Shown here: positions 22,205-58,436 of the stretch, in pieces
How positions within the stretch are numbered: the stretch's first letter is position 1
How the letters are laid out: every line of letters starts with the position of its first letter
From: Fidelibacterota bacterium
Lineage (GTDB): Bacteria > Fidelibacterota > SORT01
Length of the DNA stretch: 64,000 bases
NCBI GenBank assembly: GCA_022573815.1
Contig: JACZTG010000001.1
Location: forward strand, 64,882-128,881
Direction: 5' to 3'
Translations under genes and position numbers: made by a program
Notes under the pieces: generated by a model
Database searches by the model: none
Seen by the model: the letters and a program-made list of their open reading frames with translations, nothing else
What the model was told of the DNA's origin: nothing

Positions 22205-22206
22205 AT

Positions 22207-34292: not shown

Positions 34293-35039
34293 TTGTCCGC
34301 TTGGGCAAATCTTCTTAAGAAAGTTGAAACAAGGGGCAGCGCTTATCTTGTCCTGGTGGACCCCGATTCGATAGAACAGGATTCCGTTCCTGACATTGCA
34401 AGGCAAATATCGGATGGAGACGCGGATGGAATTCTCGTCGGAGGAAGTCTGATTAACAGTGGAGATTTCGAATCAACTCTTACCGCACTGAAAAAGTCCA
34501 CCGATTTGCCGCTGATAATATTCCCCGGCTCGTCAGAGCAGGTGTCAGAGACAGCCGATATGCTGCTTTATCTTTCCCTGCTTAGCGGGCGAAACGCCGA
34601 TAAAATTATCGGCGAACAGGTAAAATCGGCAATGCGGATAAAAAAATCGAATATAGAATCTGTTTCCACGGCGTATCTTCTAATTGAATCAGGGAGTATT
34701 ACAACAGCGCAATTTATGAGCGGAACGCTGCCGCTGCCAAGGAAGAAATATGATATAGCGGTAGCTCATGCCGTTGCAGCGGAGCTTCTCGGTATGAAGG
34801 CGATATATCTTGAAGCGGGGAGTGGCGCGGATTTACCGGTACCGTTGAAAACCGTTTCCGCTGTGACCGCAGAAGTAGATATTCCTGTGTTTGTAGGCGG
34901 AGGTATTCGTTCTCCCGAAACAGCGGAGCTCAGAGCGCGAGCGGGCGCTTCTTTCATTGTAACAGGCAGTGTTCATGAATCGGAGATGGATTCTAAATCA
35001 GTAAAAGAATTCGCAAAAGCAATACATTGGAAAGAGTAA
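34293..35039 (+). CDS. pcrB: Geranylgeranylglyceryl-/heptaprenylglyceryl-phosphate synthase family protein (PcrB/GGGPS TIM-barrel prenyltransferase)
   Basis: DGILVGGS near the N-terminus, C-terminal phosphate-binding FVGGGIRS, and GSV. Length 248 aa, typical of PcrB/GGGPS. Confidence 0.7.
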   Translation: MSAWANLLKKVETRGSAYLVLVDPDSIEQDSVPDIARQISDGDADGILVGGSLINSGDFESTLTALKKSTDLPLIIFPGSSEQVSETADMLLYLSLLSGRNADKIIGEQVKSAMRIKKSNIESVSTAYLLIESGSITTAQFMSGTLPLPRKKYDIAVAHAVAAELLGMKAIYLEAGSGADLPVPLKTVSAVTAEVDIPVFVGGGIRSPETAELRARAGASFIVTGSVHESEMDSKSVKEFAKAIHWKE

Positions 35040-40598: not shown

Positions 40599-40649
40599 TT
40601 GACATTAAAGTGTATAAAATTTATACTATTTTTAGCGAGAGTGTATAAT
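40599..40649 (+). promoter_or_regulatory. Putative sigma70-type promoter(s) upstream of the ABC transporter / pilus-regulatory block
   Basis: TTGACA (40599-40604), 17-nt spacer, TATACT (40622-40627). A second perfect TATAAT sits at 40644-40649 preceded by TG. Confidence 0.35.
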
Positions 40650-42253: not shown

Positions 42254-42673
42254 ATGGCATCACCGGATAAAAGACCTGTTGTATTGGTAATCAGCGAAAA
42301 GCCGAATGAGGTGTCAGATTTGGAAACACAACTTCCCGAGAAGGGTTTCGACGTAATAATCGCTTCCGACGGTTATGAAGGTTTACTGCTCGCCCGGGAG
42401 AAAAAACCCAATCTTATCATAACAAGCTTTAAAATTAAAAGGCTTAACGGCGCGAAATTAGCAAGATTGCTCAAGTTCGACAAAAAATATCAGGACATTC
42501 CGATTATCGCTATTTTGGAAAAAGACAGTCAGGAAAATCTTGACGAAATCCATAGCTTGAGAATTGAGAGATATGTCACAAGACCTATTGACTATGACAA
42601 TCTGATAATGAACATCAGGAACCTTTTCTCGGAAAGCGAAATCGGCGGATTTATAGAAGAGGCATTGCTTTAA
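42254..42673 (+). CDS. Stand-alone degenerate (pseudo-)receiver domain protein
   Basis: CheY-like fold is recognisable, but the acid pocket DD is SE (VLVISEKP), the phospho-Asp position is Ser (LIITSFKI), the T87 position is Leu, and the K109 position is Arg (VTRPI). Confidence 0.6.
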   Translation: MASPDKRPVVLVISEKPNEVSDLETQLPEKGFDVIIASDGYEGLLLAREKKPNLIITSFKIKRLNGAKLARLLKFDKKYQDIPIIAILEKDSQENLDEIHSLRIERYVTRPIDYDNLIMNIRNLFSESEIGGFIEEALL

Positions 42674-43459
42674 TTGACTTTTAATCCTCAATATATTCTT
42701 GATACGTGGATTTTTTTGGTTGGTGCCACGGTTGGAAGCTTCCTCAATGTGGTAATTAGCAGACTGCCTCGAGGTGAATCTATCGTGAAACCGGCTTCTC
42801 ATTGTCCAAAATGCGATACGCCTGTGAAGCCTTACGATAACATTCCGATTTTGAGCTGGCTGCTTCTCAGGGCAAAATGCAGGAGCTGCAAAAAACCTAT
42901 TTCCGTACGATATCCTTTAGTTGAGTTAGGAGTGGCGCTGTTGTTTTTAGCGATGTATCAATTTTTCGGATTATCATGGGAATTTATGAGCTTTATATCT
43001 TTAGGACCGTTATTGCTTGCGGTGAGTCTTATTGATATAGATACACAGCTAATTCCCGATTCAATTTTGATTACAGGCGCCATTATAGGAGTGTTGCTCG
43101 CTCTGTTCGGTGACGCCATCTCAATAGAAAATTCGCTAATCGGGGGAGCTGTAATGTCCGGAACGTTCTTTTTGATTGCTCTATTGGGGGAAAAGATTTT
43201 TAAGAAAGAATCTATGGGATTCGGGGATGTAAAACTTTCTGCGATGATAGGCATATTTATAGGCTGGAAATTAGCTTTGTTAGCGATATTTCTATCGACG
43301 ATTTTCGGTTCTATTATCGGCATGGGAGGAATAATATTAGGTCGAATGAAATTCGGGAAACCGTTTGCGTTCGGCCCTTTTATTGCCCTTGGAGCATTTG
43401 TCAGCGGCTTGTGGGGAGAAGATATACTTCGGCTTTATATTGAATGGGCATTTGGATGA
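42674..43459 (+). CDS. pilD: Prepilin peptidase (A24 family, PilD/GspO)
   Basis: N-terminal Zn-binding tetracysteine CPKCDT...CRSC. Polytopic with catalytic Asp regions. TTG start immediately after the preceding stop. Confidence 0.8.
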   Translation: MTFNPQYILDTWIFLVGATVGSFLNVVISRLPRGESIVKPASHCPKCDTPVKPYDNIPILSWLLLRAKCRSCKKPISVRYPLVELGVALLFLAMYQFFGLSWEFMSFISLGPLLLAVSLIDIDTQLIPDSILITGAIIGVLLALFGDAISIENSLIGGAVMSGTFFLIALLGEKIFKKESMGFGDVKLSAMIGIFIGWKLALLAIFLSTIFGSIIGMGGIILGRMKFGKPFAFGPFIALGAFVSGLWGEDILRLYIEWAFG

Positions 43460-43494: not shown

Positions 43495-45249
43495 ATGACT
43501 GCAAGAGGAAGTGATCTCATTGGTGATATTCTTTTACAAGATAATAAGATATCTAAAGAGGATTTAGAAAGAGGATTGGAACTGCAATCTGATTCAAACG
43601 ACACCTTAGGCAATATCTTAATAAAAGAAAAAATTGTTAATGAAGATACAGTTGTTCAGGCGCTCGCTAAGCAATCAAGAATCCCATATCTTGATATAGA
43701 GGATTACTCTCTCGACGTCGATTCATTAAAGGTTTTAAAGGCTGAAGAAGCCCGCAAATTACACGTGATGCCCTTGTTTGTTATCGGTGAAAGTCTGACA
43801 ATTGCTATCAGCGATCCATCTGATGTGCTTTCGGTGGACGAAGTAACCAGAATCACTCTTTTAGATGTGGAAACTGTCCTCTCAACATCAACTGCCATTG
43901 ATAAGGCGTTGGATACCTATTACGGCACCGGAGATCTGCTCAAATCACGCACAAGCACTGAAGATGCGGCGGCGCAGCTACAGGAATTAGGAGCTGAAGC
44001 AGCCAGCGGAGAAGAAGATGTATCTGTGGTCAAAATGCTCGATATGATAATAAATCAAGCGATAAAAACATCGGCATCGGATATTCATATAGAGCCTGGT
44101 GAGTATGATATACGGATCAGGTATAGAGTTGACGGCGCTCTACAAAAAGTGTTCACTCCGCCGAAAAAACTTCAGTCCGCGATTATTTCCAGAGTGAAAA
44201 TTATGGCTTCTCTTGATATTGCGGAAACGAGATTGCCTCAGGACGGCAGAATTCGGCATAAAATAGGAGATAAAAAAGTTGATATGCGTATCTCAACCTA
44301 TCCCACTTTTTATGGTGAGAAAGTGGTGATACGTGTTCTTGACATTGAGAAGGCACAAATATCGTTACCTGCTTTAGGTCTTACAGGGGTAAACCTTGAC
44401 AGATATATGAAGCTTATTAAAAACCCAAATGGAATTATTCTTGTCACAGGCCCAACAGGTTCGGGAAAAACCACAACTTTGTACGCAAGTATCAACGAGA
44501 TCAACAGAGAAGAGATTAATATTATCACTATAGAAGACCCTATCGAATATGAATTGCCAGGAATCAATCAAGGTCAGGTCAATCCCAAAGCCGGAGTGAG
44601 TTTCAGTACTGCGCTGAGAAGTATTCTCAGGCAGGATCCCGATGTGATAATGGTCGGGGAGATTCGAGACCTTGATACGGGTGCATTGGCAATCCAAGCT
44701 GCTCTCACAGGCCATCTGGTATTTAGTACTGTTCATACCAATGACGCAGCGGGAGCCATAACGCGATTAATAAATATGGGAATAGAAGAATTTCTTGTGG
44801 CATCGACGATGAGAGGAGTAGTTGCCCAAAGACTGGTAAGGAAATTGTGCAATGAATGCGCTAAGAGATACAGACCTACAGAGACAGAACTAAAAGCGCT
44901 CGGATTAAAACCGTCAGATGATATTATCTTCAGAAAGCCTGTAGGATGTATGTCATGCAGAAAAACCGGCTATCAGGGAAGGATAGGATTATACGAAGTG
45001 TTAATTCCCAATCAGGCAATTGTGAACCTAATTCTCAATGGCGGCACATCGGCAGAGATAAAAATAGAAGCGGTGAAAAACGGAATGAAAACTCTTCGAT
45101 TGGAGGGTTTGGAAAAAGTTAAAAAGGGATTGACCTCAATAGAAGAAGTAATGGTAATCACAGCCTCTGATTATGATGATGATTATAGCAGCGCAGATGA
45201 GGATGAATTGAATGGAGCAGTTGGTGATTCAACGATTGAACAAAATTGA
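43495..45249 (+). CDS. Type IV pilus/T2SS assembly ATPase (PilB/GspE/MshE family) with MshEN-type N-domain
   Basis: Walker A GPTGSGKTT, Asp box, His box, and tetracysteine CNEC...CMSC. The N-terminus has RLGxxL-like motifs LIGDILLQDNKISKEDLERGLELQ and LGNILIKEKIVNEDTVVQALAKQ. Acidic C-terminal tail. Confidence 0.85.
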   Translation: MTARGSDLIGDILLQDNKISKEDLERGLELQSDSNDTLGNILIKEKIVNEDTVVQALAKQSRIPYLDIEDYSLDVDSLKVLKAEEARKLHVMPLFVIGESLTIAISDPSDVLSVDEVTRITLLDVETVLSTSTAIDKALDTYYGTGDLLKSRTSTEDAAAQLQELGAEAASGEEDVSVVKMLDMIINQAIKTSASDIHIEPGEYDIRIRYRVDGALQKVFTPPKKLQSAIISRVKIMASLDIAETRLPQDGRIRHKIGDKKVDMRISTYPTFYGEKVVIRVLDIEKAQISLPALGLTGVNLDRYMKLIKNPNGIILVTGPTGSGKTTTLYASINEINREEINIITIEDPIEYELPGINQGQVNPKAGVSFSTALRSILRQDPDVIMVGEIRDLDTGALAIQAALTGHLVFSTVHTNDAAGAITRLINMGIEEFLVASTMRGVVAQRLVRKLCNECAKRYRPTETELKALGLKPSDDIIFRKPVGCMSCRKTGYQGRIGLYEVLIPNQAIVNLILNGGTSAEIKIEAVKNGMKTLRLEGLEKVKKGLTSIEEVMVITASDYDDDYSSADEDELNGAVGDSTIEQN

Positions 45250-45273: not shown

Positions 45274-46674
45274 ATGCGTCGACTTTTTATTGTAGAACCG
45301 GATAGTTCGACCAGAAAGGCTCTGAAAAAAACAGGATTACGGGAAGGATGGGACGTGAACTCCGTGAGCGGTGGATTTGATGCTCTTGATTGGCTTGCTG
45401 TCCATAAAACTGAAATAGTCCTTATGAGTATGAATCTTCCGCTCATAAATCCGCTAAAAGTTTTGGAAAAGATGAAAAGACTCTGTAAGCATACTCCAAT
45501 TATCCTAATGGCTGAATCAAATAATAATTTAGATATTACTAAAGCGTTTCAGGGAGGCGCATTTGATGTTGTTTTCAAACCCTTAATTCAGGAATTACTA
45601 TCTGACTGTCTTGAAGATGCGCTGAGTTTTGTCGAATTAGTTCCATCTTTAAGTAAAGCTGAGCTGCTTCATCCGTTCCTTCAGGGATACGGCGATTTGG
45701 ACGGAACCAGCAAGGCGTCACAGAATTTATATATAAAAATAGACAGAATATTGGATTCGGATATCAGTATAATGATAAACGGAGAGAGTGGAACGGGAAA
45801 AGAGGTAGCAGCCAGAACTATTCACCGGTTCGGAAAATTGAAAGACCAACCATTTGTTTCAGTGAATTGTGCCGCCATACCGGAAAATCTTCAGGAAAGC
45901 GAACTTTTCGGATATGAAAAAGGGGCCTTTACAGGAGCGGTTGCCCAAAAAACAGGAAAATTTGAGACCGCAAACAACGGAACGCTTTTTCTTGATGAGA
46001 TAGGGGATATGAGTTTACCGCTGCAGGCAAAGATATTGAGATTTATAGAAACAGGCGAGCTGGAAAGAGTGGGAGGAATAGTCCGAAAAGATGTGAGGGT
46101 TAGATTGATTACAGCTACAAATAAGAATTTGCTTGAGGAAGTAAGAGCAAAACGATTCAGGGAGGATCTGTTTCATAGGCTTAATGTTTATCCTATAACG
46201 CTTCCATCGCTTAGAGAAAGAAGAAAGGATATACCGCTGTTGTCTTCATTAACGTTAATGAATATGATTGGGAATAGTGATAAAAATATAATAATTCCTC
46301 CTGATACATACGATTATCTCAGTCAAAATAATTGGCCGGGAAATGTAAGAGAACTCATTAATTCATTAAACAGGGCGATTGTGAGCACAAAAGACGGTGT
46401 ATTATACCCGGAGTCATTTTCGTTGAGCGAGAGTGTGGAACTCGAAGTCCAAAATGAAATATCATTGGAAAAAGAAATTAATACGATGACAATCCCTACA
46501 CTGAAAAAAGTAGAGATGGACGCTATATTGAACGCATTGAAAATCACCGACGGAAATATCAGACAAGCATCAAAAGCGCTTGGTATAACAAGAGCAACAA
46601 TGTATAACAAGCTGAAACGGTATAACATTAAAGTTAGAAGAGAAATAAGAGTTGTGAACTCTCAGGAGATCTGA
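45274..46674 (+). CDS. Sigma-54-dependent transcriptional activator (NtrC/PilR-like) with a degenerate N-terminal receiver
   Basis: AAA+ sigma54-interaction domain GESGTGKE with a GAFTGA loop as GAFTGAV. C-terminal HTH. The receiver has EP in place of DD and Ser at the phospho-Asp position (IVLMSMNLP). Confidence 0.85.
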   Translation: MRRLFIVEPDSSTRKALKKTGLREGWDVNSVSGGFDALDWLAVHKTEIVLMSMNLPLINPLKVLEKMKRLCKHTPIILMAESNNNLDITKAFQGGAFDVVFKPLIQELLSDCLEDALSFVELVPSLSKAELLHPFLQGYGDLDGTSKASQNLYIKIDRILDSDISIMINGESGTGKEVAARTIHRFGKLKDQPFVSVNCAAIPENLQESELFGYEKGAFTGAVAQKTGKFETANNGTLFLDEIGDMSLPLQAKILRFIETGELERVGGIVRKDVRVRLITATNKNLLEEVRAKRFREDLFHRLNVYPITLPSLRERRKDIPLLSSLTLMNMIGNSDKNIIIPPDTYDYLSQNNWPGNVRELINSLNRAIVSTKDGVLYPESFSLSESVELEVQNEISLEKEINTMTIPTLKKVEMDAILNALKITDGNIRQASKALGITRATMYNKLKRYNIKVRREIRVVNSQEI

Positions 46675-47885
46675 TGCCGGAATTCACTTATAAAGCTAAG
46701 AATATGAAAGGCGAAATTTTCACCGGAACTTTGAACGTTGGTTCTAAACAGGAAGTAAATGAATACCTTGATGTTCAGGAATATTTTCCATTAGAGATCA
46801 AAGAGAAAAAAGAAATCAATCAAGGTCCGTCATTTATGGACAGATTTCAAAAAATCAAAACTGAAGAGATAGCCAACTTTACCCGCCAGGTTGCTACGCT
46901 CATCGGTGCAGGCGTACCGATAGTGTCCGCATTGGACGCGTTGTATGACCAGGAGGAAAATGAACGGTTTAAAGGAATTTTAAAGACGGTAATAACCGAT
47001 GTAAGCGCCGGATCCAGCTATTCTGACGCTCTTATGAAACATCGCACAACTTTTTCGAATTTATACGTGAATATGGTACGGGCAGGAGAGAGCGCCGGTG
47101 TGCTTGAAGATGTGCTAAAACGATTGAGTGAGTTTATGGAACATGACGAATCTGTCAGAAAAAGCATCAAAAGTGCTATGCGATATCCGATAATTGTAAT
47201 GATTGCTTTAACGATGGCATTCTTTTTTGCTGTTACGTTTATTATTCCGAAATTTACGGTTATGTTTGAGCGATCAGGGGTAGAACTTCCATTCATCACG
47301 CGGATGCTGCTGGCTCTAAATACTATTATAACAGATTATTGGTATCTGGCGGCTATCGGAATAGGACTGACTATTTTTCTTGTTAAACGGGTTCTCGGCA
47401 CTCAGCAAGGAAGATTGGTTTGGGATGGATTTAAGCTCAAACTCCCGATTTTCGGAACGCTGTTCCTGAAAAATGCGATTTCGCGATTTACGCATATGCT
47501 TGAAACGCTGAATTCCAGTGGTATTCATATAATAGAAGCTCTGCAAATATGCTCGGAGACTACAGGGAATGCAGCTATAAGTCGTGAGATAGATCAAACA
47601 AGATCCGAAGTGGAAATCGGAGCAAGCTTGGCTGATGCACTTGATAAAGGAACCATTTTCCCTCCAATGACTATAAGGATGATACGGACAGGACAGGATG
47701 CGGGATCACTCGACGAAATGCTGCGAAGTATTTTCGTTCAATACGATGAAGAGGTGGATTATCTCACAAAAAGGCTTTCAGCTCTTGTTGAGCCATTGAT
47801 GACAGTGGTAATCGGAGTATTTATCCTGATTATAGCTCTGGGAATATTCTTACCAATGTGGGGAATGTACGAGGCAGTGAAATAA
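46674..47885 (+). CDS. Type II secretion system F-family platform protein (PilC/GspF)
   Basis: Two T2SSF repeats, 3 TM helices, 403 aa. Confidence 0.85.
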   Translation: MPEFTYKAKNMKGEIFTGTLNVGSKQEVNEYLDVQEYFPLEIKEKKEINQGPSFMDRFQKIKTEEIANFTRQVATLIGAGVPIVSALDALYDQEENERFKGILKTVITDVSAGSSYSDALMKHRTTFSNLYVNMVRAGESAGVLEDVLKRLSEFMEHDESVRKSIKSAMRYPIIVMIALTMAFFFAVTFIIPKFTVMFERSGVELPFITRMLLALNTIITDYWYLAAIGIGLTIFLVKRVLGTQQGRLVWDGFKLKLPIFGTLFLKNAISRFTHMLETLNSSGIHIIEALQICSETTGNAAISREIDQTRSEVEIGASLADALDKGTIFPPMTIRMIRTGQDAGSLDEMLRSIFVQYDEEVDYLTKRLSALVEPLMTVVIGVFILIIALGIFLPMWGMYEAVK

Positions 47886-49219
47886 AGAGCGCTCAACCAA
47901 ATTCATTCGCGCGAAACTTTAGTTGCGCCCCAATTTTGGCGTTTTTTTTCATTCTTCTTTCTTGTGACGGGAGAGATTTAACGGATGGCGGAAACGACAA
48001 CGGAATTACCACACAATTTAATTTAAGCGTAATGTCCGACGAGCTGAAGGTAACGTTAAATTGGGATAAAATCAGTGATGATAATCTTGATTTATATAAC
48101 ATTTATCGTTCAGAGAATGAAGGCGAATTTATTTTATACGATACAGTAAATATTGCTTTAAATACATTCAGCGACACAGAAGTGACTGCTGATTTTATTT
48201 ATGAATATAAGATAACTGCGATATTTGACGGCATCAGAGAATCCGACCCGTCAGAAATTGTGAGAATTATTCCCGGATTCACTAACCTTTGGGTATTGGA
48301 CTTTCAGGGCGATGTTTTAAGTGAATTGACTCATGATGCAGCTCATTTTACCGGAAATTTTTTTGATAACTTGACGCTGCCGGTGGCGCTCGACATCGAT
48401 GAAAGAAACGGTTATATTTACTACATTGATGGATCGAATAAGACTCTTAATTTGGTTTTCGAAGGATCTGAACCATTACTTTTGACAAATGCTGAGGGGA
48501 ACGCTCAAATGTTTTCGGATCCGACTGATGTGGATTTTGATATGCTCAGAGATGAAATTTGGTTAACAAACGGCAATTCGGGCGCTCTGTTTCATTTCGC
48601 AATGATAAACCAATCCCAATGGGTCCTTTCCGATTCCCTAAATACAGGTGGAGACGCAATATACGGTCAGCTGGATATCGCAAGAGGGGATTATTGGGTA
48701 GTGAACAGTAAGGGAAAATCAATTGAAATATTTCAGAATAGAAATGGTGAATTTGTACAGATTTCAGCCACAGGCTTTGCGAGCGGAAACCTTACCCTTG
48801 CATTGGACGCGGATAGAGCAACGGCGTATGTCATAGACAGGTCAAACGGTGATATATTTTGGGTAAAGGCATCGGGGGAAACAACTTTAATAACTAATAT
48901 TAAAAATGCATTTTTAGCTGCGGTTGTGCCTTCTACAGGCGATGTGTGGCTTATTGCTGATGACGATGAGAATGGCATCGCAGATTTAGTAAAACTATCA
49001 ATCGTAGGAAGCCGTATACTGGAAATAATGAATCTATATTCTCAGCCCTCGTGGATAGGAGTAAATCCAATTAATATGAACGTTACAGTGTTGAACACTG
49101 CTTCAGGGGAAGTTAAAATTGATGTGTTATCCAATAGCACAGGGGAAAATATAAGTTCATTCAAATCTTTGAATTTTCCCGCAATTGCCCGAATTGTAGA
49201 TAAAAGAAATAGGATTTAA
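47858..49219 (+). CDS. Lipoprotein with an FN3-like domain and a predicted beta-propeller-like C-terminal region
   Basis: Lipobox FFFILLSCDG. The FN3-like segment runs LKVTLNWDKI...YEYKITA. It overlaps the pilC 3' end by 28 nt, so the true start may be an internal alternative start codon. Confidence 0.45.
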   Translation: MGNVRGSEIKSAQPNSFARNFSCAPILAFFFILLSCDGRDLTDGGNDNGITTQFNLSVMSDELKVTLNWDKISDDNLDLYNIYRSENEGEFILYDTVNIALNTFSDTEVTADFIYEYKITAIFDGIRESDPSEIVRIIPGFTNLWVLDFQGDVLSELTHDAAHFTGNFFDNLTLPVALDIDERNGYIYYIDGSNKTLNLVFEGSEPLLLTNAEGNAQMFSDPTDVDFDMLRDEIWLTNGNSGALFHFAMINQSQWVLSDSLNTGGDAIYGQLDIARGDYWVVNSKGKSIEIFQNRNGEFVQISATGFASGNLTLALDADRATAYVIDRSNGDIFWVKASGETTLITNIKNAFLAAVVPSTGDVWLIADDDENGIADLVKLSIVGSRILEIMNLYSQPSWIGVNPINMNVTVLNTASGEVKIDVLSNSTGENISSFKSLNFPAIARIVDKRNRI

Positions 49220-49234
49220 ATTTTATAGAAGAAA

Positions 49235-51256
49235 TTGAAAGCATTTTCTAAAAACTTCATTCTTTTACTTCTGCCTTTGCTGGTTTTTTTTGTTGTCTAC
49301 ATCGGAGATACGGTATTTAAGATTAATACCGGTGTAGTAGAAGTATTAGCGTGGCTAAGAGAATTATTACTTCTTGGAGCTATCGCAGGACTTGTGCCTC
49401 TTCTCTCTTCGCTGAAGATTCTTAATCCCGGCAAGACAACAGCAAAATTCAGAGTATTACTTTTCGTTGTTATAGCATTTTTTGTAGTTTCCGTCGTTCA
49501 CAAATTTGTTTTAGTCCCAATATTCGGTACTCTCAATGGATATGTATTGATATCCATAATCTACTCTTTTTTAAGCATTATAGGGTTGATCCAAATTCGG
49601 GACCTCATCTACTTTAAAAGAAAAAAAAATACCGGCAAAGTATTTGCCGCGCTAATCATATCAATTTCTATGGTTTCTATATATGGCGGATTAAGCTCAA
49701 AAGATTTTCAGCAAATATTGGGCATAGTGATGATTCCAATCGGATTCGCAATATTCAATTCGTTTAGGGTTTCATGGATCGCTTATTTGTCTAAGAGTCA
49801 AAAATACCTGGTTTTACTCTTCTGTATGATTTTAGTTGCCGGATCATATTTTTTAAGGGATTTGGTTATAGCATCAGCATTATTTGAATATAGCTACAGT
49901 GTAGAAATATTTGTACATCTTGCCACAACTTCAATCTCTATATATACGTTTTTTGGAATGGTTGGCTTACTGCTTCACCTTCCGACAGCAACGTTATTCG
50001 ACCGGAAAATAAGAGATATTGAGTCTCTTCAAAGTCTCAGCCGGGCGGTGAGTTCGGTTTTAGATGTAAGTAAACTCACGGAGATGATTTCAGAATTCAC
50101 TGCTGAATATTCCAACTCACAATACTCGTGGTTGGTATTAAGAGAGCCTGATGATGACGAATTTTACCTTATGTCAAGTCATGGACTCACAGAAGAGCAA
50201 CAAAATAATATGAGTTTTAAAATTGACGAGGGAACAAGCGGCCTGATTTTTAAAAGCGGCGAACCTTTGATTTCTCAAGATGTGGCAAGAGAAGAAAGCA
50301 CCAAGCACTTAAAATTCTGGAATGCAGGAATAAAATCACTTATAGGATATCCCCTTATATCCGAAGCGGGAGTTATAGGTATTCTCTACGCCGGAATGAA
50401 TGAAGAATACGGATATGATAATGACGACATAGACTTAATAGGCGCATTCTCAAATCATATAGTAATCGCATTGGAAAATGCTAAATTGGTTGAAGGGTCC
50501 ATCGAAAAAGAAAGACTCGAACATGAGCTTAGACTTGCCCACGAAGTACAGCTGAATCTTCTTCCGAAGGGTGTTCCGGATTTACCCGATGATTTCGACA
50601 TCGCTGCTGCCAGTATGCCGGCTAATGAAGTTGGCGGCGATTATTTTGATTTCATTGAGATTGATGAAAATCGTATCGGACTTGTTATCGGCGATGTTTC
50701 AGGCAAGGGAACATCAGCTGCATTCTATATGGCCGAAATTAAAGGGATGATTCAAGCCTACAGCAGAATTTATGATTCACCACGTAAAATATTATGCGAT
50801 GTAAATCGCGCACTATACGGTAATCTGGACAGCCGCTCCTTTATATCGCTTACCTACGCCATTGTGGACAGTAAAAAACATAAAATGAAGTACTCAAGAG
50901 CCGGACATATGCCTATACTGCGCTATCTCGAAAAAGAGAACGAATGGTCCGAATTGGAGCCAAAAGGGATAGGATTAGGTATGGATAAAGGCGATATCTT
51001 CGATAAAGTTATCGAAGAAGCGGAAATAAAGCTTAAAAGTGACGAGCTTTATTTCTTTTACACTGACGGCGCTTCGGACGCGATGAATCATAATCAGGAG
51101 GAATTTGGAGAAGAAAAATTGAGAATATCGTTAACAAAACATTATCACTTGAGCTGCGAAGAGATAAAAGCCAACCTGATTAATGATATTTGGAAACATA
51201 TCGGCAAACAAGATGTGCATGACGATATAACGATGATTATTATGAAAATTAAGTAA
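49235..51256 (+). CDS. Membrane-anchored GAF-domain PP2C/SpoIIE-family Ser/Thr phosphatase (RsbU-like)
   Basis: About 7 N-terminal TM helices, a GAF domain, and a C-terminal PPM domain with HEVQLNLLP and EVGGDYFDF. Typical of RsbU/SpoIIE phosphatases. Confidence 0.8.
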   Translation: MKAFSKNFILLLLPLLVFFVVYIGDTVFKINTGVVEVLAWLRELLLLGAIAGLVPLLSSLKILNPGKTTAKFRVLLFVVIAFFVVSVVHKFVLVPIFGTLNGYVLISIIYSFLSIIGLIQIRDLIYFKRKKNTGKVFAALIISISMVSIYGGLSSKDFQQILGIVMIPIGFAIFNSFRVSWIAYLSKSQKYLVLLFCMILVAGSYFLRDLVIASALFEYSYSVEIFVHLATTSISIYTFFGMVGLLLHLPTATLFDRKIRDIESLQSLSRAVSSVLDVSKLTEMISEFTAEYSNSQYSWLVLREPDDDEFYLMSSHGLTEEQQNNMSFKIDEGTSGLIFKSGEPLISQDVAREESTKHLKFWNAGIKSLIGYPLISEAGVIGILYAGMNEEYGYDNDDIDLIGAFSNHIVIALENAKLVEGSIEKERLEHELRLAHEVQLNLLPKGVPDLPDDFDIAAASMPANEVGGDYFDFIEIDENRIGLVIGDVSGKGTSAAFYMAEIKGMIQAYSRIYDSPRKILCDVNRALYGNLDSRSFISLTYAIVDSKKHKMKYSRAGHMPILRYLEKENEWSELEPKGIGLGMDKGDIFDKVIEEAEIKLKSDELYFFYTDGASDAMNHNQEEFGEEKLRISLTKHYHLSCEEIKANLINDIWKHIGKQDVHDDITMIIMKIK

Positions 51257-51295
51257 CAATAAGCGTTTCAGAACGTAAATAGCAGGGAGAGATAA

Positions 51296-51652
51296 ATGCA
51301 AACAGACATAATATTGAAGAGAGAAGACATTAATGGAGTCTCGGTAATTCACGTCGGAGGATACCTTGATGCTCATACAGCAACAAAATTCGAATCGTTA
51401 ATACTCGAGTTGACCAATGCAGAAAGATATAAACTCATCCTGAACTTCAAGGAACTTGATTACATTTCAAGCGCCGGATTGGGAGTTATTATGGGAAATA
51501 TCGAAGAGATACGGAATCATGATGGAGATATCAAGCTGTCTGATATGGGCGAGAAAATTTACAGAGTATTTGATTTAGTGGGATTCCCGAGTTTGTATGA
51601 CATATTCGATACTCAGAAAGAGGCTGAAACTGCTTTCGAAAGCAAAAGCTAA
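51296..51652 (+). CDS. STAS-domain anti-sigma-factor antagonist (RsbV/SpoIIAA-like)
   Basis: 118 aa. The conserved phosphorylatable Ser context is LDYISSAGLGVI. Confidence 0.8.
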   Translation: MQTDIILKREDINGVSVIHVGGYLDAHTATKFESLILELTNAERYKLILNFKELDYISSAGLGVIMGNIEEIRNHDGDIKLSDMGEKIYRVFDLVGFPSLYDIFDTQKEAETAFESKS

Positions 51653-51666
51653 ACGGGGAGAGAATA

Positions 51667-52104
51667 GTGTCCAACAAAGATTTTATACTGAAAATTCCCA
51701 CTCGCAGCACAAACCTGAAAATAATTCGTGATTTTATAATGGATGTTTCCGACAAAGCGGGATTTGAGAACGAAGCGTGCTGTGATATTGCGCTTGCGGT
51801 TGATGAAGGATGCACAAATGTTATAAAACACGCATATAGGGGTGGCGATGGCAAGGATATTATAATAAACGTCAAGTATGATAAAGAAAAAATAACTATT
51901 ATCATATCTGATACGGGTAAAGGATTTGATTCAGAGGTTTATGAAACCCTTGATTTAGAGGAATACCTTATAAAATTGGAAAAGGGCGGATTAGGAATTC
52001 ACATTATGAAAAATACAATGGACGAGATTGATTTTAGGAAGGAAAAGGATAACATTAATTCCGTTCATATGATAAAATTTTTACCGCAGGAGAGTGCAGA
52101 TTAA
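51667..52104 (+). CDS. Anti-sigma regulatory factor Ser/Thr protein kinase (RsbW/SpoIIAB-like GHKL ATPase)
   Basis: HATPase_c N-box DEGCTNVIKHAY, G1 DTGKGF, G2 GGLGI. 145 aa. GTG start. Confidence 0.75.
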   Translation: MSNKDFILKIPTRSTNLKIIRDFIMDVSDKAGFENEACCDIALAVDEGCTNVIKHAYRGGDGKDIIINVKYDKEKITIIISDTGKGFDSEVYETLDLEEYLIKLEKGGLGIHIMKNTMDEIDFRKEKDNINSVHMIKFLPQESAD

Positions 52105-52165
52105 AAGATGAATTCCAATTCCTTTGAATAAGTAATGATACAGTCGTATTTTACTTCTGCCATTT

Positions 52166-53893
52166 ATGCAATATAATAACACAAACAGAAAATATCTCGA
52201 AGAGAGAGAGCAGGATCTGCATGATCTTTTTGAAGTAAGCAAACGACTGGATAGCTTAACTAATTTCGATTCCATTATCGGACAGATGCTTCTCTCATTA
52301 ATGGGGAGATTGATGATACAGAAATCTGTATTTATCATCATGAATGAAGATAAAGATGAACTCAGTCTCTGCAAGGCAAAAGGACTTAATCAATTTGAAG
52401 AAGGGACGGTAATAAAATACAATAAATTACCGGAAGAATTTTGCAAGTTGGAAGCGCTCAAGAAAGATGAGCCCTTGAGGGATTATTTAGAAAGCGAAGA
52501 CCTTGAAGTGTTGTTTCCTATGATGAAAGCAGGCAGATTGATGGGTCTCCTTGCATTCGGAAAAAGGTTCAAAAACGACGAATATGAGAAAGAAGAAATA
52601 AATTATGTTTCTTCGCTACTGTCTTTAACAGCTTCATCAATAGAAAACGCACTATCCATAGATAAGATAAACAGTATAAACCGGGGACTCGACAGAAAAA
52701 ATCAGGAACTCCAGACTCTTTTTGAACTGGGTAAAGAATTAAACTCCACGTTAGATCAGGAGACTATAGTAAGACAATTCGGCTATGCTCTGATGGGGCA
52801 AATGATGGTAGGCAGGTTTCTAATCTATTTAATCAGCGACGACTCTCTAAAGATATTTCACAATAAAGGTTTCAGCGGCGAGCATGTTGAGAGTATTCAT
52901 CCGTGCTTAAAAGAGCTGGAAGATTTAAACGAAATATTGCTTGTGCAGAAAAAGAAAGATAAACTAAACGGCATACTTGCCAAGGCTCAAATAGCTGCTG
53001 CTATTCCTCTCTCGATCCAGGGTGAAAATAAAGGGGTGCTTTGTATAGAGGAAAAAAGAGGGACAGAACAATTTTCTGATGACGATTTACAGCTTCTGCA
53101 TACCATGGGCGGACAGGTGATAATTTCTTTAGAAAATGCGAGACTCTTTAAGGAATCGCTTGAAAGACAACGGTTGCAGGAAGAACTGAACATTGCCAGG
53201 GAAATACAACAAGGTCTGCTTGCATCTGATTTCAATGTCTCCGGCGGGTGGAAGATATTCGGGAAGAATGTTCCCAGCCTGGAAGTTGGCGGAGATTACT
53301 TTGATGTGATTAAATTGGATAACGGTAAAATAGCGCTAGCTATCGCTGATGTATCCGGAAAGGGAGCCGGCGCCTCACTGCTTATGTCGAATCTGCAGGC
53401 AAGCTTGCGCGCCTTAGTCAATGTTGATACAAATCTTGGTTCAATGGTGGCAAGGATAAATAATATCCTGTATCAAAATACATCAGCGGATAAATATATA
53501 ACCTTTTTCATCGGGATTCTTGACCCTGACAAAAGAACATTCACGTTTTGCAATGCGGGCCATAACCCACCTCTAATATTCTCCCAAAACGGTAATGTGA
53601 CCGAGCTCGAAGAGGGAGGTTTAATAATCGGGGTGATGGCTGGAGCAATTTATAAGGTTGGAAATGTCGTGTTAGATGATGGGGACACTATCGTAATGTA
53701 CACAGACGGAATTACGGAAGCAGAAAACGAAAAAGGTGAAGAATTCGGCGAGGAAGGCTTAAAGAACCATGTAAAAAGAAACCTAAAGTCTTCCCCTGAG
53801 GAGCTGATAAACTCTATAATAGAGGAAGTAGAAAGCCACGCTGTTGATTTGTCGGCCCAGGATGATGTGACACTACTTATTTTTAGCGGTTAA
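52166..53893 (+). CDS. Cytoplasmic GAF-domain PP2C/SpoIIE-family phosphatase (second RsbU/RsbP-like)
   Basis: Two GAF-like regions followed by a PPM domain with REIQQGLL and EVGGDYFD. No TM segments. Confidence 0.8.
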   Translation: MQYNNTNRKYLEEREQDLHDLFEVSKRLDSLTNFDSIIGQMLLSLMGRLMIQKSVFIIMNEDKDELSLCKAKGLNQFEEGTVIKYNKLPEEFCKLEALKKDEPLRDYLESEDLEVLFPMMKAGRLMGLLAFGKRFKNDEYEKEEINYVSSLLSLTASSIENALSIDKINSINRGLDRKNQELQTLFELGKELNSTLDQETIVRQFGYALMGQMMVGRFLIYLISDDSLKIFHNKGFSGEHVESIHPCLKELEDLNEILLVQKKKDKLNGILAKAQIAAAIPLSIQGENKGVLCIEEKRGTEQFSDDDLQLLHTMGGQVIISLENARLFKESLERQRLQEELNIAREIQQGLLASDFNVSGGWKIFGKNVPSLEVGGDYFDVIKLDNGKIALAIADVSGKGAGASLLMSNLQASLRALVNVDTNLGSMVARINNILYQNTSADKYITFFIGILDPDKRTFTFCNAGHNPPLIFSQNGNVTELEEGGLIIGVMAGAIYKVGNVVLDDGDTIVMYTDGITEAENEKGEEFGEEGLKNHVKRNLKSSPEELINSIIEEVESHAVDLSAQDDVTLLIFSG

Positions 53894-54163: not shown

Positions 54164-55282
54164 ATGACAAGAACTGTAATAGCAGCCCTTTTTCTGCTGG
54201 CTCTTACATTTAATACCACAACATTAAAAGCTCAAGGCGAAGCTGGCGCGCCTTTTTTATTGATAGCTCCGGGTGCGCGCGCAAGCGGGATGGGCGAAGC
54301 GAATGTTGCATTAGCCGATGACGCGGTTGGCGGATTTTATAATCCTGCCGGTATTGCATGGGCGGAAGGCAAAAATCTAACATTTATGCGCGCGAAGTGG
54401 CTTCCAAATTTAGTCGATGACATCAGTTATAATTTCTTAGGTTATAGCCAATATGTAGAGGGTCTTGGTTCAATCGGAGGTCATATAATATACCTTGATC
54501 TCGGAGAACAGGTGAGAACCGGAGAAAGTTCACCTGATGCATTAGGTACCTTTCAATCTTTTATGCTTGCGGTAGCAGGCACTTACGCCGCGGATCTCGG
54601 TGAAAATTCTGCGGTAGGAATTAGCGTTAAATTCGTACATCAGGACCTGGCGCCATTTGGAGCCGGACAGGAAAAAGGAAGCGGCTCATCCTCTTCCTTC
54701 GCATTTGATGTAGGTCTGTTAGCTCGAGATAAAATTGTCGGCGGACTTGATTTGGGTATTGCTATTGCTAATATAGGTCCGGACATCGCATTTATTGATG
54801 CTAATCAGGCTGATCCGATGCCGATGAATTTAAAAATGGGTCTCTCATATATGCTCTTCGATGGAGAATTTAATTCCCTGCGAATAGTGTATGATATGAA
54901 CAAGCTTCTCGTGGCTTCATATCCTGATAGAGATTTAAACGGCAATGACATAATTGACATTGGAACTGATGAAGAAGCCCATAAAGATCCATTTTACAAA
55001 GCATTTGTTACTTCGTGGACTGATGATTCTGCAAATATTGAATGGCAGAAGATCATTCATAATTTTGGCGTCGAATATTGGTATTCAGGGGTGGTAGCGC
55101 TTAGAGCCGGCGTATTCAGAGATTATTTACTTAAAGATACAGATAATAGTGTCGCACTTTTTAAAACTGTTGGTGTGGGTCTCAGGTATAATACCTTAGG
55201 TTTCGATTTCGGCTACGTAGATGGTCCCGAAGGACATCCGATTACCAACACTATGCGTTTAAGTTTTAATCTGGCTTTTTAG
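54164..55282 (+). CDS. PorV/PorQ-family outer-membrane beta-barrel protein (type IX secretion shuttle-like)
   Basis: Signal peptide, then the family-typical PGARASGMGEANVALADDAVGGFYNPAGIAW. About 370 aa. Ends in an aromatic residue. AAGGAG RBS. Confidence 0.6.
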   Translation: MTRTVIAALFLLALTFNTTTLKAQGEAGAPFLLIAPGARASGMGEANVALADDAVGGFYNPAGIAWAEGKNLTFMRAKWLPNLVDDISYNFLGYSQYVEGLGSIGGHIIYLDLGEQVRTGESSPDALGTFQSFMLAVAGTYAADLGENSAVGISVKFVHQDLAPFGAGQEKGSGSSSSFAFDVGLLARDKIVGGLDLGIAIANIGPDIAFIDANQADPMPMNLKMGLSYMLFDGEFNSLRIVYDMNKLLVASYPDRDLNGNDIIDIGTDEEAHKDPFYKAFVTSWTDDSANIEWQKIIHNFGVEYWYSGVVALRAGVFRDYLLKDTDNSVALFKTVGVGLRYNTLGFDFGYVDGPEGHPITNTMRLSFNLAF

Positions 55283-55346
55283 AACACTTCAGCTAATAAT
55301 TTTACACAGGTGCATGGCAGTTGCCGGTCCTCAAAAAGCGAATTCA

Positions 55347-58300
55347 ATGTTGAATCTGTTTCCCGATAGAATAAAAACATTCGTTTTCGTTATAATCTTA
55401 TTTTTTGTATCAGGAATTGAAGCGGCGGAAAACGGATACAGAGTTAATTTTCATAATTATTCTTCAGGTTTAAAGAGTTCTGTTATAAGTCAAAGTGTCT
55501 CAATAGCGGCTATCAGGGTTCAGTTTGTGGAAGATGACGAAGAAGGTACGACGGGAAACGGATTGTTCGATCTTTCATCACCATCGGCAGGCGATGATTT
55601 TATATTCGATCCGCCGCCGCATAACCGGAGATATTTTCAGGCGCATTTGGAATCGCTTAACAATTATTTTAATTCGGTAGGTCAATCCCGATGGGGAATT
55701 GGTGGGATCAATTCAACCGTATTCCCGCTTCTAACGGATAGCGTGTATGATCTTCAAAATCCGATGCGGTTTTATAGCCCGAAATCAGATGAAGAAACCA
55801 ATGATAAACGGTTGGCGCAGCTTTTCTACGAATCTGTAATTTTAGCTGCGGATGATGCGGGAAATTACTCGGGAACTGACTTAGTTATTGTTTTTCATGC
55901 TGGAGTTGGAAAGGATTTTACATTTCAACTCGACCTCACACCGTTCGATATTCCCTCGGCTTTGCTCGACAGAGATTTTCTTCAGCTGAATTTGGCTTCT
56001 TCTGAATTTTCCCAATTAGAAAGTTTGGGAGTTACCACCGGATTGATACTTCCGGAAACACAAAGTCAGGATGGTTTCAATATTGCGCTAAATGGTACTA
56101 TTACTTTGCTGTTCGGCAGGTTTTTAGGATTACCCTCTTTATGGAACACGGATACTGGCGACCCTGGAATCGGAAAATGGGGATTGATGGATCAAGGTTC
56201 AAATAATATGGATGGAGCTGTCCCAGCTCGCCCGAGCGCATTCAGCAGAGTATTTATGGGATGGGAATTGGATATACCAGCATATCCGAGTGAAGGAAGA
56301 GAAATATTCACTGCCGCTGACGAGTTTGGCATTAAATATTATTCTATTAAAATCAATTCAGATGAATATTTTTTGATTGAAAACAGAAGCAGAGCTACAA
56401 CAAATAAAACGGGATTCGAAGAGCTTATAGTCGGAAGAGATACCGCTTATGTAAAGTTTGATTCCTTAGGAAGCGGCGTAATAGTTAGTGTATCAAATTA
56501 TGATGCGGGAATTCCCGGCTCGGGACTGCTTATCTGGCATATAAATGAATCTGTCGTGAAAGAGTTTTACTCCACAAACCGGATTAATACAGATAAAGAA
56601 AACAGGGGAGTAGATCTTGAAGAGGGGGACGGTTCGCAGGATATAGGAGAAGAATTTGGATTCTTGCAGCCCGGGGGCGGTTCTGAAAACGGCACGCCTT
56701 GGGATCCTTTTTACGCTAAGAATCCCGCCTGGTATTTCCAAAATCCTGATTGGGAAGCGGATGCTGATTCCACAGTGGCATTTACGCCTGAGACCAGCCC
56801 AAACAGCAATAGTAACGCAGGTGGCAAAACAGGAATTAGTATAACAAATATTTCCAAAGCGGGTTTAAGAATGACCTTTGATGTTGCTTCAAGCTTTCTT
56901 GCTGTGGGGTTCCCATTATATCTGGGCGCCGGAGCGGGAAGGAGTTTTCCTGCAGTTGCCGACTTAGATGGAGACGGAAATATAGAGATATTAGTGGCAA
57001 CGTCGGATGGAACTATACACGGCTGGACACTGATACTCGATAGACTTCCATTAGTTTACTTGGGAGGTGGTGATACAGAAAATATAGTATCCACATTCGG
57101 AAATGTAACTACAAGCCATAGAATCGGAATATTCGCAGATTCGGTAGGTTCTATTAGTAATATCGCAATAAGCGACATAGACGGAGACGATACACTTGAA
57201 GTTGTGGTAGTTACTAAAAATGGCAAAGTGATAATGTATGAGCCGGAAGAAGGGGCGGTTATTGATAATCGCGCCGACAGCGCCTGGTCAATCTATCTTG
57301 GCGAAGAAGTGTTAGCAACTCCAATTGTATCCAACGGAAGAGTTTATGTAGGCAGCTTAAGCGGCACAATTTCGGAGATTAACAGCAGCGGGAATCTGAT
57401 TAATTCGACTGCATCCGCTATTGAAATTCTAAGTATGACATTACCGGATGGTGAAGCTGTCAAAGGTTCAAACGACAATATTATTTCCGGTAATTTTTTA
57501 CAGAACCGTAAATCGCTTGGTTCTGAACCCGAAGATTTAATTGTGACTATTTCCGCGAAAGGAATTGTGAGGGTTTTTATCGGTACAAACACGGATCTGG
57601 TCAACGCTGATTATGAATATGATATGGGCGACAGTGTACTTTCCTCTCCCGCAATGGCAGATATAGATAAAGATGGTGAACTTGAGATAATAATAACAGG
57701 GAATAATAAACTTTGGGCGTTTAACGGGAATTTGACACTTGTGGAAAATTTCCCTGTCACAATCGGTATTCCGGAACCGGTCGGTAAGATATTATCGTCG
57801 CCTGTTATAGGAGATGTTGACGGCGACGGTTCACCGGAAATAATTTTCGGAGCTCCTGACGGAAAGATTTACGGTTATCATTCGGATGGAACTGTGGCGG
57901 AAGGTTTTCCTCTTTCAACGGGAGCAAGCGTGAGCTCAACGCCTGTTATAGTTGATGCGATTCCGTCAGGCGCAATGGAAATCGTGGCAACGAGTGACGA
58001 TGGTTGGCTGTATATGTGGTCTGTGCCCGGTAACGGAACAGCTGGAAATACTCCGGCTTATCTTCCGTGGAGCGCATTTGCCGGCTCGAACGAAAGAACA
58101 AATTTTGCTCCCGCTTCACCGAGTTCACCTCCTGTAGGAATAAATGAACTGCTTGCTCAGGATAAAGTGTTCGCTTATCCGAATCCCGTGGAAGGGAGTG
58201 AAGTGCGGATACGGTATTTTGTTAATCAATCCGGCAGTGTTGATATAATGATATTTGATATGGCAGGTGAGTTTGTAACAAAATTGCTTAACTCCAACAT

Positions 58301-58436
58301 AGTTCAAAATGAATATAACGAAACGGTTTGGAATGTAAAAAACGTGTCAAGCGGAGTCTATTTAGCCAGGGTAACCGCTCATGGATTATCCGGCGGGCTG
58401 TCGTCTAAAGTTATTAAAGTGGCAGTTGTAAAATGA
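55347..58436 (+). CDS. Large secreted FG-GAP/VCBS-repeat protein with a T9SS C-terminal sorting domain
   Basis: Signal peptide from the internal M at 55347. Repeated DxDGDG calcium-binding FG-GAP motifs include DLDGDGNIEILVATSDG, DIDGDDTLEVVVVTKNG, DIDKDGELEIIITGNN and DVDGDGSPEIIFGAPDG. The C-terminal about 80 aa, VFAYPNPVEG...SGVYLARV...KV, matches the Por secretion CTD. Confidence 0.65.
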   Translation: MLNLFPDRIKTFVFVIILFFVSGIEAAENGYRVNFHNYSSGLKSSVISQSVSIAAIRVQFVEDDEEGTTGNGLFDLSSPSAGDDFIFDPPPHNRRYFQAHLESLNNYFNSVGQSRWGIGGINSTVFPLLTDSVYDLQNPMRFYSPKSDEETNDKRLAQLFYESVILAADDAGNYSGTDLVIVFHAGVGKDFTFQLDLTPFDIPSALLDRDFLQLNLASSEFSQLESLGVTTGLILPETQSQDGFNIALNGTITLLFGRFLGLPSLWNTDTGDPGIGKWGLMDQGSNNMDGAVPARPSAFSRVFMGWELDIPAYPSEGREIFTAADEFGIKYYSIKINSDEYFLIENRSRATTNKTGFEELIVGRDTAYVKFDSLGSGVIVSVSNYDAGIPGSGLLIWHINESVVKEFYSTNRINTDKENRGVDLEEGDGSQDIGEEFGFLQPGGGSENGTPWDPFYAKNPAWYFQNPDWEADADSTVAFTPETSPNSNSNAGGKTGISITNISKAGLRMTFDVASSFLAVGFPLYLGAGAGRSFPAVADLDGDGNIEILVATSDGTIHGWTLILDRLPLVYLGGGDTENIVSTFGNVTTSHRIGIFADSVGSISNIAISDIDGDDTLEVVVVTKNGKVIMYEPEEGAVIDNRADSAWSIYLGEEVLATPIVSNGRVYVGSLSGTISEINSSGNLINSTASAIEILSMTLPDGEAVKGSNDNIISGNFLQNRKSLGSEPEDLIVTISAKGIVRVFIGTNTDLVNADYEYDMGDSVLSSPAMADIDKDGELEIIITGNNKLWAFNGNLTLVENFPVTIGIPEPVGKILSSPVIGDVDGDGSPEIIFGAPDGKIYGYHSDGTVAEGFPLSTGASVSSTPVIVDAIPSGAMEIVATSDDGWLYMWSVPGNGTAGNTPAYLPWSAFAGSNERTNFAPASPSSPPVGINELLAQDKVFAYPNPVEGSEVRIRYFVNQSGSVDIMIFDMAGEFVTKLLNSNIVQNEYNETVWNVKNVSSGVYLARVTAHGLSGGLSSKVIKVAVVK

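Follow-up and report, generated by a model that had tools for sequence, protein, structure and literature searches.

We analysed a stretch of 64,000 nucleotides (64 kb; hereafter the window) from a Fidelibacterota bacterium (assembly GCA_022573815.1, contig JACZTG010000001.1, positions 64,882 to 128,881), and in particular an open reading frame (ORF) at 45274-46674 on its forward strand, which encodes an activator of sigma-54-dependent transcription with an unusual receiver domain. The ORF starts with ATG, 8 nt downstream of an AAGGA Shine-Dalgarno-like motif, and Pfam assigns to its 466-amino-acid product the layout of the NtrC family: a receiver (Response_reg, PF00072, residues 5-110, 55.2 bits against a cut-off of 30.2), an AAA+ domain with the GAFTGA motif (Sigma54_activat, PF00158, residues 144-308, E = 5e-66, followed by AAA_lid_14, PF25601) and a Fis-type helix-turn-helix (HTH). 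The Walker A (GESGTGKE), GAFTGA and Walker B (LFLDEIGD) motifs are intact and invariant across the alignment of orthologues. The AlphaFold 2 (AF2) model matched the folds of NtrX, NtrC1, LuxO, NtrC4 and FleQ, and its AAA+ domain superposed on those of FleQ, ZraR and FlrC with a root-mean-square deviation (rmsd) of 1.4-1.8 A, FleQ giving the value of 1.4 A. With the AAA+ domain and its Walker and GAFTGA motifs in place, and the Fis-type HTH likewise, the protein is a bacterial enhancer-binding protein.

Judged by its neighbours, the activator gene belongs to a type IV pilus gene cluster of deep-sea Candidatus Marinimicrobia. The genes run in the order ABC ATPase, ABC permease, stand-alone receiver, PilD, PilB, activator and PilC, and then continue with an unknown 453-amino-acid protein, a membrane GAF-PP2C phosphatase, a STAS protein, an RsbW-type kinase, a second GAF-PP2C phosphatase and PorV. 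The spacing around the activator is that of a tight operon, with a gap of 25 nt after pilB and a pilC start that overlaps the activator stop codon by 1 nt, and from these positions the gene is predicted to be co-transcribed with pilB and pilC. No histidine-kinase domain was found in any ORF of at least 130 amino acids in the 64 kb, which extends to the whole window what a first-pass annotation of this DNA had said of the locus, and no Hanks-type Ser/Thr kinase was found in the 64 kb either.

Residue equivalences in the receiver were taken from phmmer alignments of activator residues 1-141 with solved receivers (ArlR, RssB, a designed receiver and others), which ran without gaps through beta1, beta3, beta4 and beta5. 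Every alignment placed Ser52 opposite the phosphorylated Asp; Glu8-Pro9 fell at the acidic pair (DD), so that its second position (DD2) is Pro, Ala80 fell at the conserved Thr (T) and Lys102 at the conserved Lys (K), which is thus retained. At the aromatic switch position three residues before the Lys (K-3), a MAFFT alignment of 111 full-length activators placed Val99. The AF2 model (mean predicted local distance difference test score, pLDDT, 82.6, and above 90 over most of the receiver) has the canonical (beta-alpha)5 fold, with strands (E) and helices (H) at E3-7, H11-23, E27-31, H34-43, E48-52, H60-70, E76-80, H85-93, E98-101 and H106-125; in it Ser52 ends beta3, Ala80 ends beta4 and Lys102 follows beta5. 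The first-pass annotation had already placed a Ser at the phospho-acceptor position (in IVLMSMNLP), an EP in the acidic pocket and the conserved Lys in FKPL, and had described the AAA+ domain (GESGTGKE, GAFTGA) and the HTH as intact; the alignments, the Pfam matches and the model agree with it on each of these points. We also agree with it that canonical His-Asp phosphotransfer cannot activate the protein, since the receiver has lost its acceptor Asp, its metal-binding DD2 and the conserved Thr. The Thr and K-3 residues normally couple a phosphoryl group in the active site to the alpha4-beta5-alpha5 face, and since the Thr is replaced by Ala and no aromatic residue stands at K-3, the canonical read-out of a phosphoryl group at the Ser52 site would be removed as well.

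A different alignment register that supplied an Asp would have undone this assignment, but such a register was ruled out: the alignments contain no gap near beta3, there is no conserved Asp in the vicinity, and in the window protein itself the ten residues to either side of Ser52 include none. Two residues after Ser52, at D+2, the window protein has Asn; the orthologues vary here between Asn, Ala and Asp, so that there is no conserved alternative acceptor. The domain is a receiver by profile and by fold that has lost its catalytic residues, and so is a pseudo-receiver, or aspartate-less receiver. By these alignments it lacks four of the six signature residues (DD2, the acceptor Asp, the Thr and the aromatic K-3). 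It keeps the Lys and the fold of a canonical receiver and does not have its Asp, its acidic pair, its Thr or Ser, or its aromatic K-3, and it is predicted to be unable either to catalyse or to read out aspartyl phosphorylation.

The Ser is a fixed feature of the lineage. Sixteen activator orthologues (65-100% identity, from Candidatus Marinimicrobia) were compared with the 95 next-closest activators (35-43% identity), and all 16 carry Ser at the acceptor site, which answers the question of its conservation that the first-pass annotation had raised. The same proteins have Ala at T, Val or Ile at K-3, and Pro (15) or Arg (1) at DD2, with Glu8 (DD1) and Lys102 conserved; the 95 comparison activators have Asp at the acceptor site in 93 cases, an acidic DD2 in 93, and Tyr or Phe at K-3 in all. 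In all the orthologous DNA looked at, the codon equivalent to that of Ser52 is AGT or AGC, which lies two steps away from GAY, via Asn or Gly. Pairwise Nei-Gojobori ratios of nonsynonymous to synonymous substitution (dN/dS), calculated for the window gene and two relatives 86-89% identical to it, were 0.06-0.13 for the receiver, 0.05-0.07 for the AAA+ domain and 0.11-0.14 for the C-terminal HTH region. Because the Ser is kept in all 16 orthologues and the receiver dN/dS is only 0.06-0.13, the pseudo-receiver is under purifying selection rather than decaying, and appears to be functional. The invariance of Ser52 is unexceptional by itself, as 49 of 160 N-terminal columns are invariant in the same orthologues. 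Among the invariant columns of the linker are L131, L132, L136, Q137, G138, Y139 and G140, which form part of a clade-specific motif, LLhPFLQGYG, distinctive enough to pick out this clade alone among 185,579 species genomes.

The identical activator protein is present on 11 contigs from several sources and is annotated in one Candidatus Marinimicrobia metagenome-assembled genome. Chance, sequencing error, a pseudogene or an assembly artefact as the origin of the Ser were ruled out by these 11 contigs together with the 16 of 16 count and the low dN/dS. A wider family of Ser-receivers was sought with a receiver-plus-linker profile among 1.84 billion representative sequences, and none was found beyond one 50%-identity cluster, the remaining matches being generic multi-receiver proteins; the same alignment searched against 185,579 species genomes retrieved two genomes of the clade and two irrelevant weak matches. 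By these searches the focal Ser-receiver clade is narrow.

The stand-alone receiver encoded at 42254 shares the replacement, as the first-pass annotation had noticed. Alignments place its Ser15-Glu16 at DD, Ser58 at the acceptor position, Leu at T and Arg at K, and the AF2 model (pLDDT 86) gives a receiver fold with Ser58 at the end of beta3. The protein ends in a tail, SESEIGGFIEEALL, that is invariant in an Asp-less subclade whose members include relatives of 55% identity that carry Ala in place of the Asp; canonical homologues of the stand-alone receiver do not have it. The tail looks like a docking or recognition peptide, and modelling its docking onto the protein's own domain was uninformative (AF2 tail pLDDT about 40). 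The acceptor residue among the homologues is Asp, Glu, Ala or Ser, and the nearest Asp-less ones (P0315 and P0316, 55% identity, on 1.4-kb contigs without gene context) are those with Ala.

The pilus genes keep their order well beyond the window. Three loci of the focal clade (L001, L002 and L003) are collinear with it over whatever region each contig holds. The order stand-alone receiver, pilD, pilB, activator, pilC is found in L001 and L003 and also in L006 and L010, and pilB, activator, pilC in L002 and L009, both on contigs truncated on the upstream side. L001 also has, between the genes for the RsbW-type kinase and the second GAF-PP2C, a gene absent from the window (L001:11524-15498, minus strand) for a 1324-amino-acid hybrid histidine kinase with Reg_prop/Y_Y_Y, HATPase_c and receiver domains. 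L006, L009 and L010 are sister loci. The top match to the activator outside the clade (P0026, 43% identity) lies in L006, where an ABC permease, a stand-alone receiver, PilD, PilB, the activator and PilC are followed by an adenylate/guanylate cyclase-TPR protein (L006:10817-12841), in the position taken in the focal clade by the unknown ORF and partner-switching genes, and then by a row of type IV pilin genes. Two more Marinimicrobia loci were found by way of their pilins, L010 with an L006-like order and L009 with PilB, activator, PilC and pilins. The activators of the three sister loci are 38-42% identical to that of the window.

Each of the three sister loci has a 12/12 match to the sigma-54 consensus (TGGYAYR-N4-TTGCW, for which 0.035 12/12 matches are expected per 17 kb), starting 58-74 nt before the start codon of its first pilin gene (Table 1), a layout that is classic for PilR. 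Because these loci, with the same gene order, have perfect sigma-54 promoters before their pilins, the window activator is likely to be PilR-like. The sister activators all keep the acceptor Asp. Their DD positions are Ser-Thr, Gly-Lys or Gly-Arg, none of them acidic, with Val at T and Ser, Lys or Arg at K, and by these residues they are pseudo-receivers too, though the Asp is kept. It follows that the phosphorylation independence of this pilus module is older than the Asp-to-Ser change. The acceptor position of the four syntenic activator lineages thus reads Asp, Asp, Asp and Ser, and the stand-alone receivers of the sister loci are canonical in L006 and have Glu at the Asp site in L010. Across the syntenic family the position is variable, so that Ser is no requirement of the family. 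A position that was unconserved among relatives had been named in the first-pass annotation as grounds for abandoning its proposal, and this applies in part: within the clade the Ser is constant, and across the syntenic family it is not.

A search for pilins of the focal clade with a pilin from a sister locus retrieved only those of sister lineages. A scan for sigma-70 promoters and terminators that might bound the operon gave counts not above those of shuffled sequence. The best regional sigma-70-like match, TTGACA-17-TATACT (11/12), lies at 40599-40627, just upstream of the ABC ATPase gene, and may begin a long transcription unit through the pilus genes, with the proviso that the promoter count as a whole did not exceed that of the shuffles.

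Table 1. Coordinates of features in the window and of sigma-54 elements in the sister loci (positions without a locus name are those of the window).
Feature	Position	Strand	Basis or remark
Stand-alone pseudo-receiver, 139 aa	42254-42673	+	PF00072, alignments, AF2
Ser58 codon AGC of the stand-alone receiver	42425-42427	+	sequence
Conserved C-terminal tail SESEIGGFIEEALL, aa 126-139	42629-42670	+	alignment
Prepilin peptidase PilD	42674-43459	+	PF06750, PF01478
Pilus assembly ATPase PilB (MshEN + T2SSE)	43495-45249	+	PF00437 (E = 3e-138), PF05157
Sigma-54 enhancer-binding protein, 466 aa	45274-46674	+	Pfam domains, orthologues, AF2 fold matches
Pseudo-receiver domain, aa 1-110	45274-45603	+	alignments to solved receivers, column counts, fold, dN/dS
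Ser52 codon AGT, phospho-acceptor position	45427-45429	+	sequence
Long helix alpha5 and linker, aa 106-143	45589-45702	+	AF2 helix 106-125
AAA+ sigma-54 interaction domain and lid, aa 144-382	45703-46419	+	PF00158, PF25601
Walker A	45781-45804	+	within activator AAA+ domain
GAFTGA loop	45922-45939	+	within activator AAA+ domain
Fis-type HTH, aa 409-450	46498-46623	+	HTH_8, PF02954 (E = 4.6e-12)
Pilus platform protein PilC	46674-47885	+	PF00482 (E = 4e-61)
453-aa ORF with lipoprotein-like N-terminus	47858-49219		no Pfam match; between pilC and first PP2C gene
Partner-switching module	49235-53893	+	Pfam; neighbour of the pilus unit
Membrane GAF-PP2C (SpoIIE/PP2C) phosphatase	49235-51256	+	
STAS protein	51296-51652	+	aligns with SpoIIAA and RsbV
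RsbW-type kinase (HATPase_c_2)	51667-52104	+	
Second GAF-PP2C phosphatase	52166-53893	+	
Sigma-54 element TGGCACGGTTGTTGCT	L006:13193-13208		12/12, before first of tandem pilin genes
Sigma-54 element TGGCATACTATTTGCT	L009:5801-5816		12/12, before first of tandem pilin genes
Sigma-54 element TGGCATGCTTTTTGCA	L010:9570-9585		12/12, before first of tandem pilin genes

Taken together, we think it probable that the gene encodes a PilR-like activator of a Marinimicrobia pilus cluster whose pseudo-receiver is independent of phosphorylation and held by purifying selection. The activator would be co-expressed with pilB and pilC, and its pseudo-receiver would most likely serve as an assembly or regulatory module, itself insensitive to phosphorylation, that determines how the AAA+ ring oligomerises. 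The long alpha5 helix and the invariant LLhPFLQGYG linker may be part of this control over ring assembly. We infer that the receiver acts by protein contacts rather than by covalent modification, probably contacts of receivers with each other or with a partner, as in FleQ. The intact AAA+ domain with its GAFTGA loop, together with the HTH, would then remodel sigma-54 RNA polymerase at pilus promoters, probably those of pilin genes lying outside the window, and Ser52 would be the residue that this clade happened to fix at a site no longer in need of Asp. Several points weigh against this interpretation. No pilin gene was found in the 64-kb window, and a scan of it for sigma-54 promoters gave 7 matches of at least 10/12 (10.8 expected) and none of at least 11. 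The assignment to pilin promoters, and with it the putative target genes in this genome, derives from sister loci whose activators are only 38-42% identical. The contact-based role is proposed from sequence and model, with a hypothetical partner or ligand. Finally, a Ser that is invariant in the clade and occurs in both receivers of the cluster is not what would be predicted if any residue would do.

An alternative put forward in the first-pass annotation is that the partner-switching enzymes encoded beyond pilC have the two Ser-bearing receivers as their substrates or partners. Pfam confirms the neighbours on which it was built, a GHKL Ser kinase of the RsbW type (HATPase_c_2) and two GAF-SpoIIE/PP2C phosphatases, and adds a STAS protein. 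In its full form the proposal is that Ser52 and Ser58 are phosphorylated by the RsbW-type kinase and dephosphorylated by the GAF-PP2C phosphatases, an arrangement that would replace a histidine-kinase input to the pilus activator. In both receiver proteins the Ser stands exposed at the end of beta3, and each of the four clade members examined has the kinase and the two phosphatases 2.5-7 kb downstream on the same strand; in the sister lineages that keep Asp (L006, L009 and L010), the partner-switching genes are absent after pilC and pilin genes hold their place. The general possibility was also mentioned in a survey of aspartate-less receivers (ALRs; PMC4395418). However, the module appears complete by itself: its STAS protein aligns the second Ser of ISSAGLG with the phosphorylated Ser58 of SpoIIAA, and so would be the module's own substrate, with a canonical Ser. 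STAS domains are the known substrates of RsbW/SpoIIAB-type kinases (for example bioRxiv 10.64898/2026.04.08.717354); a literature search found no receiver-domain substrate for these kinases, and neither the activator receiver nor the stand-alone receiver has a STAS fold, both being receiver folds in the AF2 models. Collinearity in the focal clade also spans MutL and MiaA (L003) and PorV (L002 and L003), so that synteny of the partner-switching genes, being equal to that of these genes, says nothing specific of a link to the pilus; the 453-amino-acid ORF, for its part, is syntenic in the focal clade (45-49% identity) and absent at that place in the sister loci. Further, the co-occurrence carries no statistical weight, being confined to one narrow clade; with Ala at T and Val at K-3, the residues that would sense a phosphoryl group are gone; and the nearest Asp-less stand-alone receivers with the same C-terminal tail carry Ala, not Ser. 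Since the module has its own STAS substrate, shows only unspecific synteny and is missing from the sister loci, and since the acceptor varies, we regard phosphorylation of the two Ser residues by these enzymes as very improbable. A rewiring of His-Asp input to receiver-fold Ser phosphorylation, with both residues of the pilus module true phosphorylation sites controlling a sigma-54 activator, is just as hard to credit.

Ser52 might instead be modified by a Hanks-type Ser/Thr kinase encoded elsewhere, or take part in ligand binding in the pocket formed with Glu8 and Lys102. Both of these residues are kept and conserved around it, and ligand binding and Ser/Thr phosphorylation are documented for some pseudo-receivers (PMC12632262, PMC4395418), but the 64 kb has yielded no Hanks-type kinase and retention of DD1 and Lys is usual in Asp-less receivers (65% and 70%; PMC4395418), so we hold such a use to be unlikely. 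Much the same can be said of the receiver as a decaying relic on an activator that is constitutive and governed only by its own expression level. The loss of four of the six signature residues, the lack of a kinase nearby and a gene that by position is co-transcribed with pilB and pilC would all fit, yet the dN/dS of the receiver is as low as that of the HTH region, its predicted fold scores above 90 in pLDDT, the linker motif does not vary, and the domain has been kept in all four lineages although the catalytic residues were lost long ago; decay is therefore doubtful. Least credible of all, and barely worth entertaining, is a response regulator that remains in a two-component system and is phosphorylated on another residue by a kinase encoded elsewhere. 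It could appeal to the Asp at D+2 (MSMD) of some orthologues and to the CheY D57N mutant, which can be phosphorylated on the adjacent Ser56, but the window protein has Asn at D+2 and other orthologues have Ala there, and with Pro or Arg at the metal-binding DD2 the chemistry of Mg-dependent phosphotransfer would be missing. A pseudo-receiver that acts without phosphorylation in a PilR-like activator thus remains the interpretation that we favour.

Other genes in the window include a Bat (aerotolerance-type) operon at 17709-22965 with two BatA/VWA proteins, TPR proteins and BatD, and a minus-strand gene at 26155-27417 with a strong match to PF08014 (MATCAP, the microtubule-associated tyrosine carboxypeptidase family; E = 5e-113) in this bacterial genome. 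A PcrB-family (prenylglyceryl phosphate synthase-like) gene at 34293-35039 adjoins a gene for a XerC/D-type recombinase, and at 54164-58436 the PorV-like type IX secretion protein is followed by a 1040-amino-acid FG-GAP repeat protein with a Por_Secre_tail sorting domain.

Between several percent and about 13% of receiver domains are pseudo-receivers, which occur at similar frequencies in the major output families; their commonest replacements are Thr-to-Ala and Lys-to-Arg (PMC12632262). The two window proteins are typical in this respect, with Thr-to-Ala in the activator and Lys-to-Arg in the stand-alone receiver. In the ALR survey (Maule et al. 2015; PMC4395418) Ser is the third commonest replacement at the Asp site (15%), DD1 and Lys are usually retained and DD2 is usually lost; the activator receiver resembles this class in being recognised by PF00072, in having Ser in place of Asp, and in its kept DD1 and Lys and lost DD2. 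It differs from most ALRs in that both Y-T coupling positions are lost (Ala and Val), a minority pattern, and from ALRs at large in its output, a sigma-54 AAA+ domain, and in its setting, the type IV pilus genes of an uncultured phylum. The activator receiver is accordingly an ordinary example of a known pseudo-receiver class, a lineage-specific degeneration for which no new mechanism is needed. Its value lies in a natural series within one pilus cluster, in which the sisters have an activator with an Asp-keeping pseudo-receiver beside a canonical or Glu-bearing stand-alone receiver and the focal clade has Ser in both. How pseudo-receivers switch is largely unknown despite their abundance (PMC12632262), and the series could help to find out what role a pseudo-receiver plays in a sigma-54 AAA+ activator and whether expression of the Marinimicrobia pilus is regulated at all. 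Possible Ser phosphorylation at the former Asp site was raised in the ALR survey, with no example known (PMC4395418); a demonstration that Ser52 is phosphorylated would provide the first instance of Ser-for-Asp phosphorylation at a receiver active site.

A close parallel, along with its homologues, is FleQ of Pseudomonas aeruginosa, a sigma-54 activator whose receiver is incompetent for phosphorylation but essential, and acts through dimerisation and partner proteins (PMC10723142). Both proteins are built as receiver, AAA+ and HTH and both retain a non-phosphorylatable receiver, in FleQ's case in a regulator of a surface motility organelle. Their AAA+ domains are 48% identical (and superpose as given above), with an overall identity of only about 35%. 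In contrast to FleQ, the activator receiver belongs to PF00072, with no PF06490 reported by the Pfam scan, the cluster has no FleN-like gene, and it encodes pili rather than flagella.

In output the activator resembles PilR, the NtrC-family sigma-54 activator of the PilS-PilR system of Pseudomonas, Myxococcus and Geobacter. Like PilR it is encoded among pilB and pilC, and the sister loci have perfect -24/-12 promoters directly before their pilins. Unlike PilR it has no PilS kinase gene in the 64 kb, its receiver is without acceptor Asp, metal site and Thr, and, unlike PilR loci, the window has neither a pilin gene nor a sigma-54 promoter match above chance. It would thus be PilR-like in output, yet without the PilS-dependent phosphorylation features by which PilR is defined. 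The stand-alone receiver has its own counterpart in FrzS of Myxococcus (PMC9811614), which has Ala at the Asp site (PMC4395418): each is an Asp-less receiver encoded with pilus genes, and the window protein matches the FrzS structures PDB 2gkg and 2nt4 weakly (E about 1e-5). Where FrzS has a coiled-coil domain, the stand-alone receiver has instead its short, conserved, acidic and hydrophobic tail.

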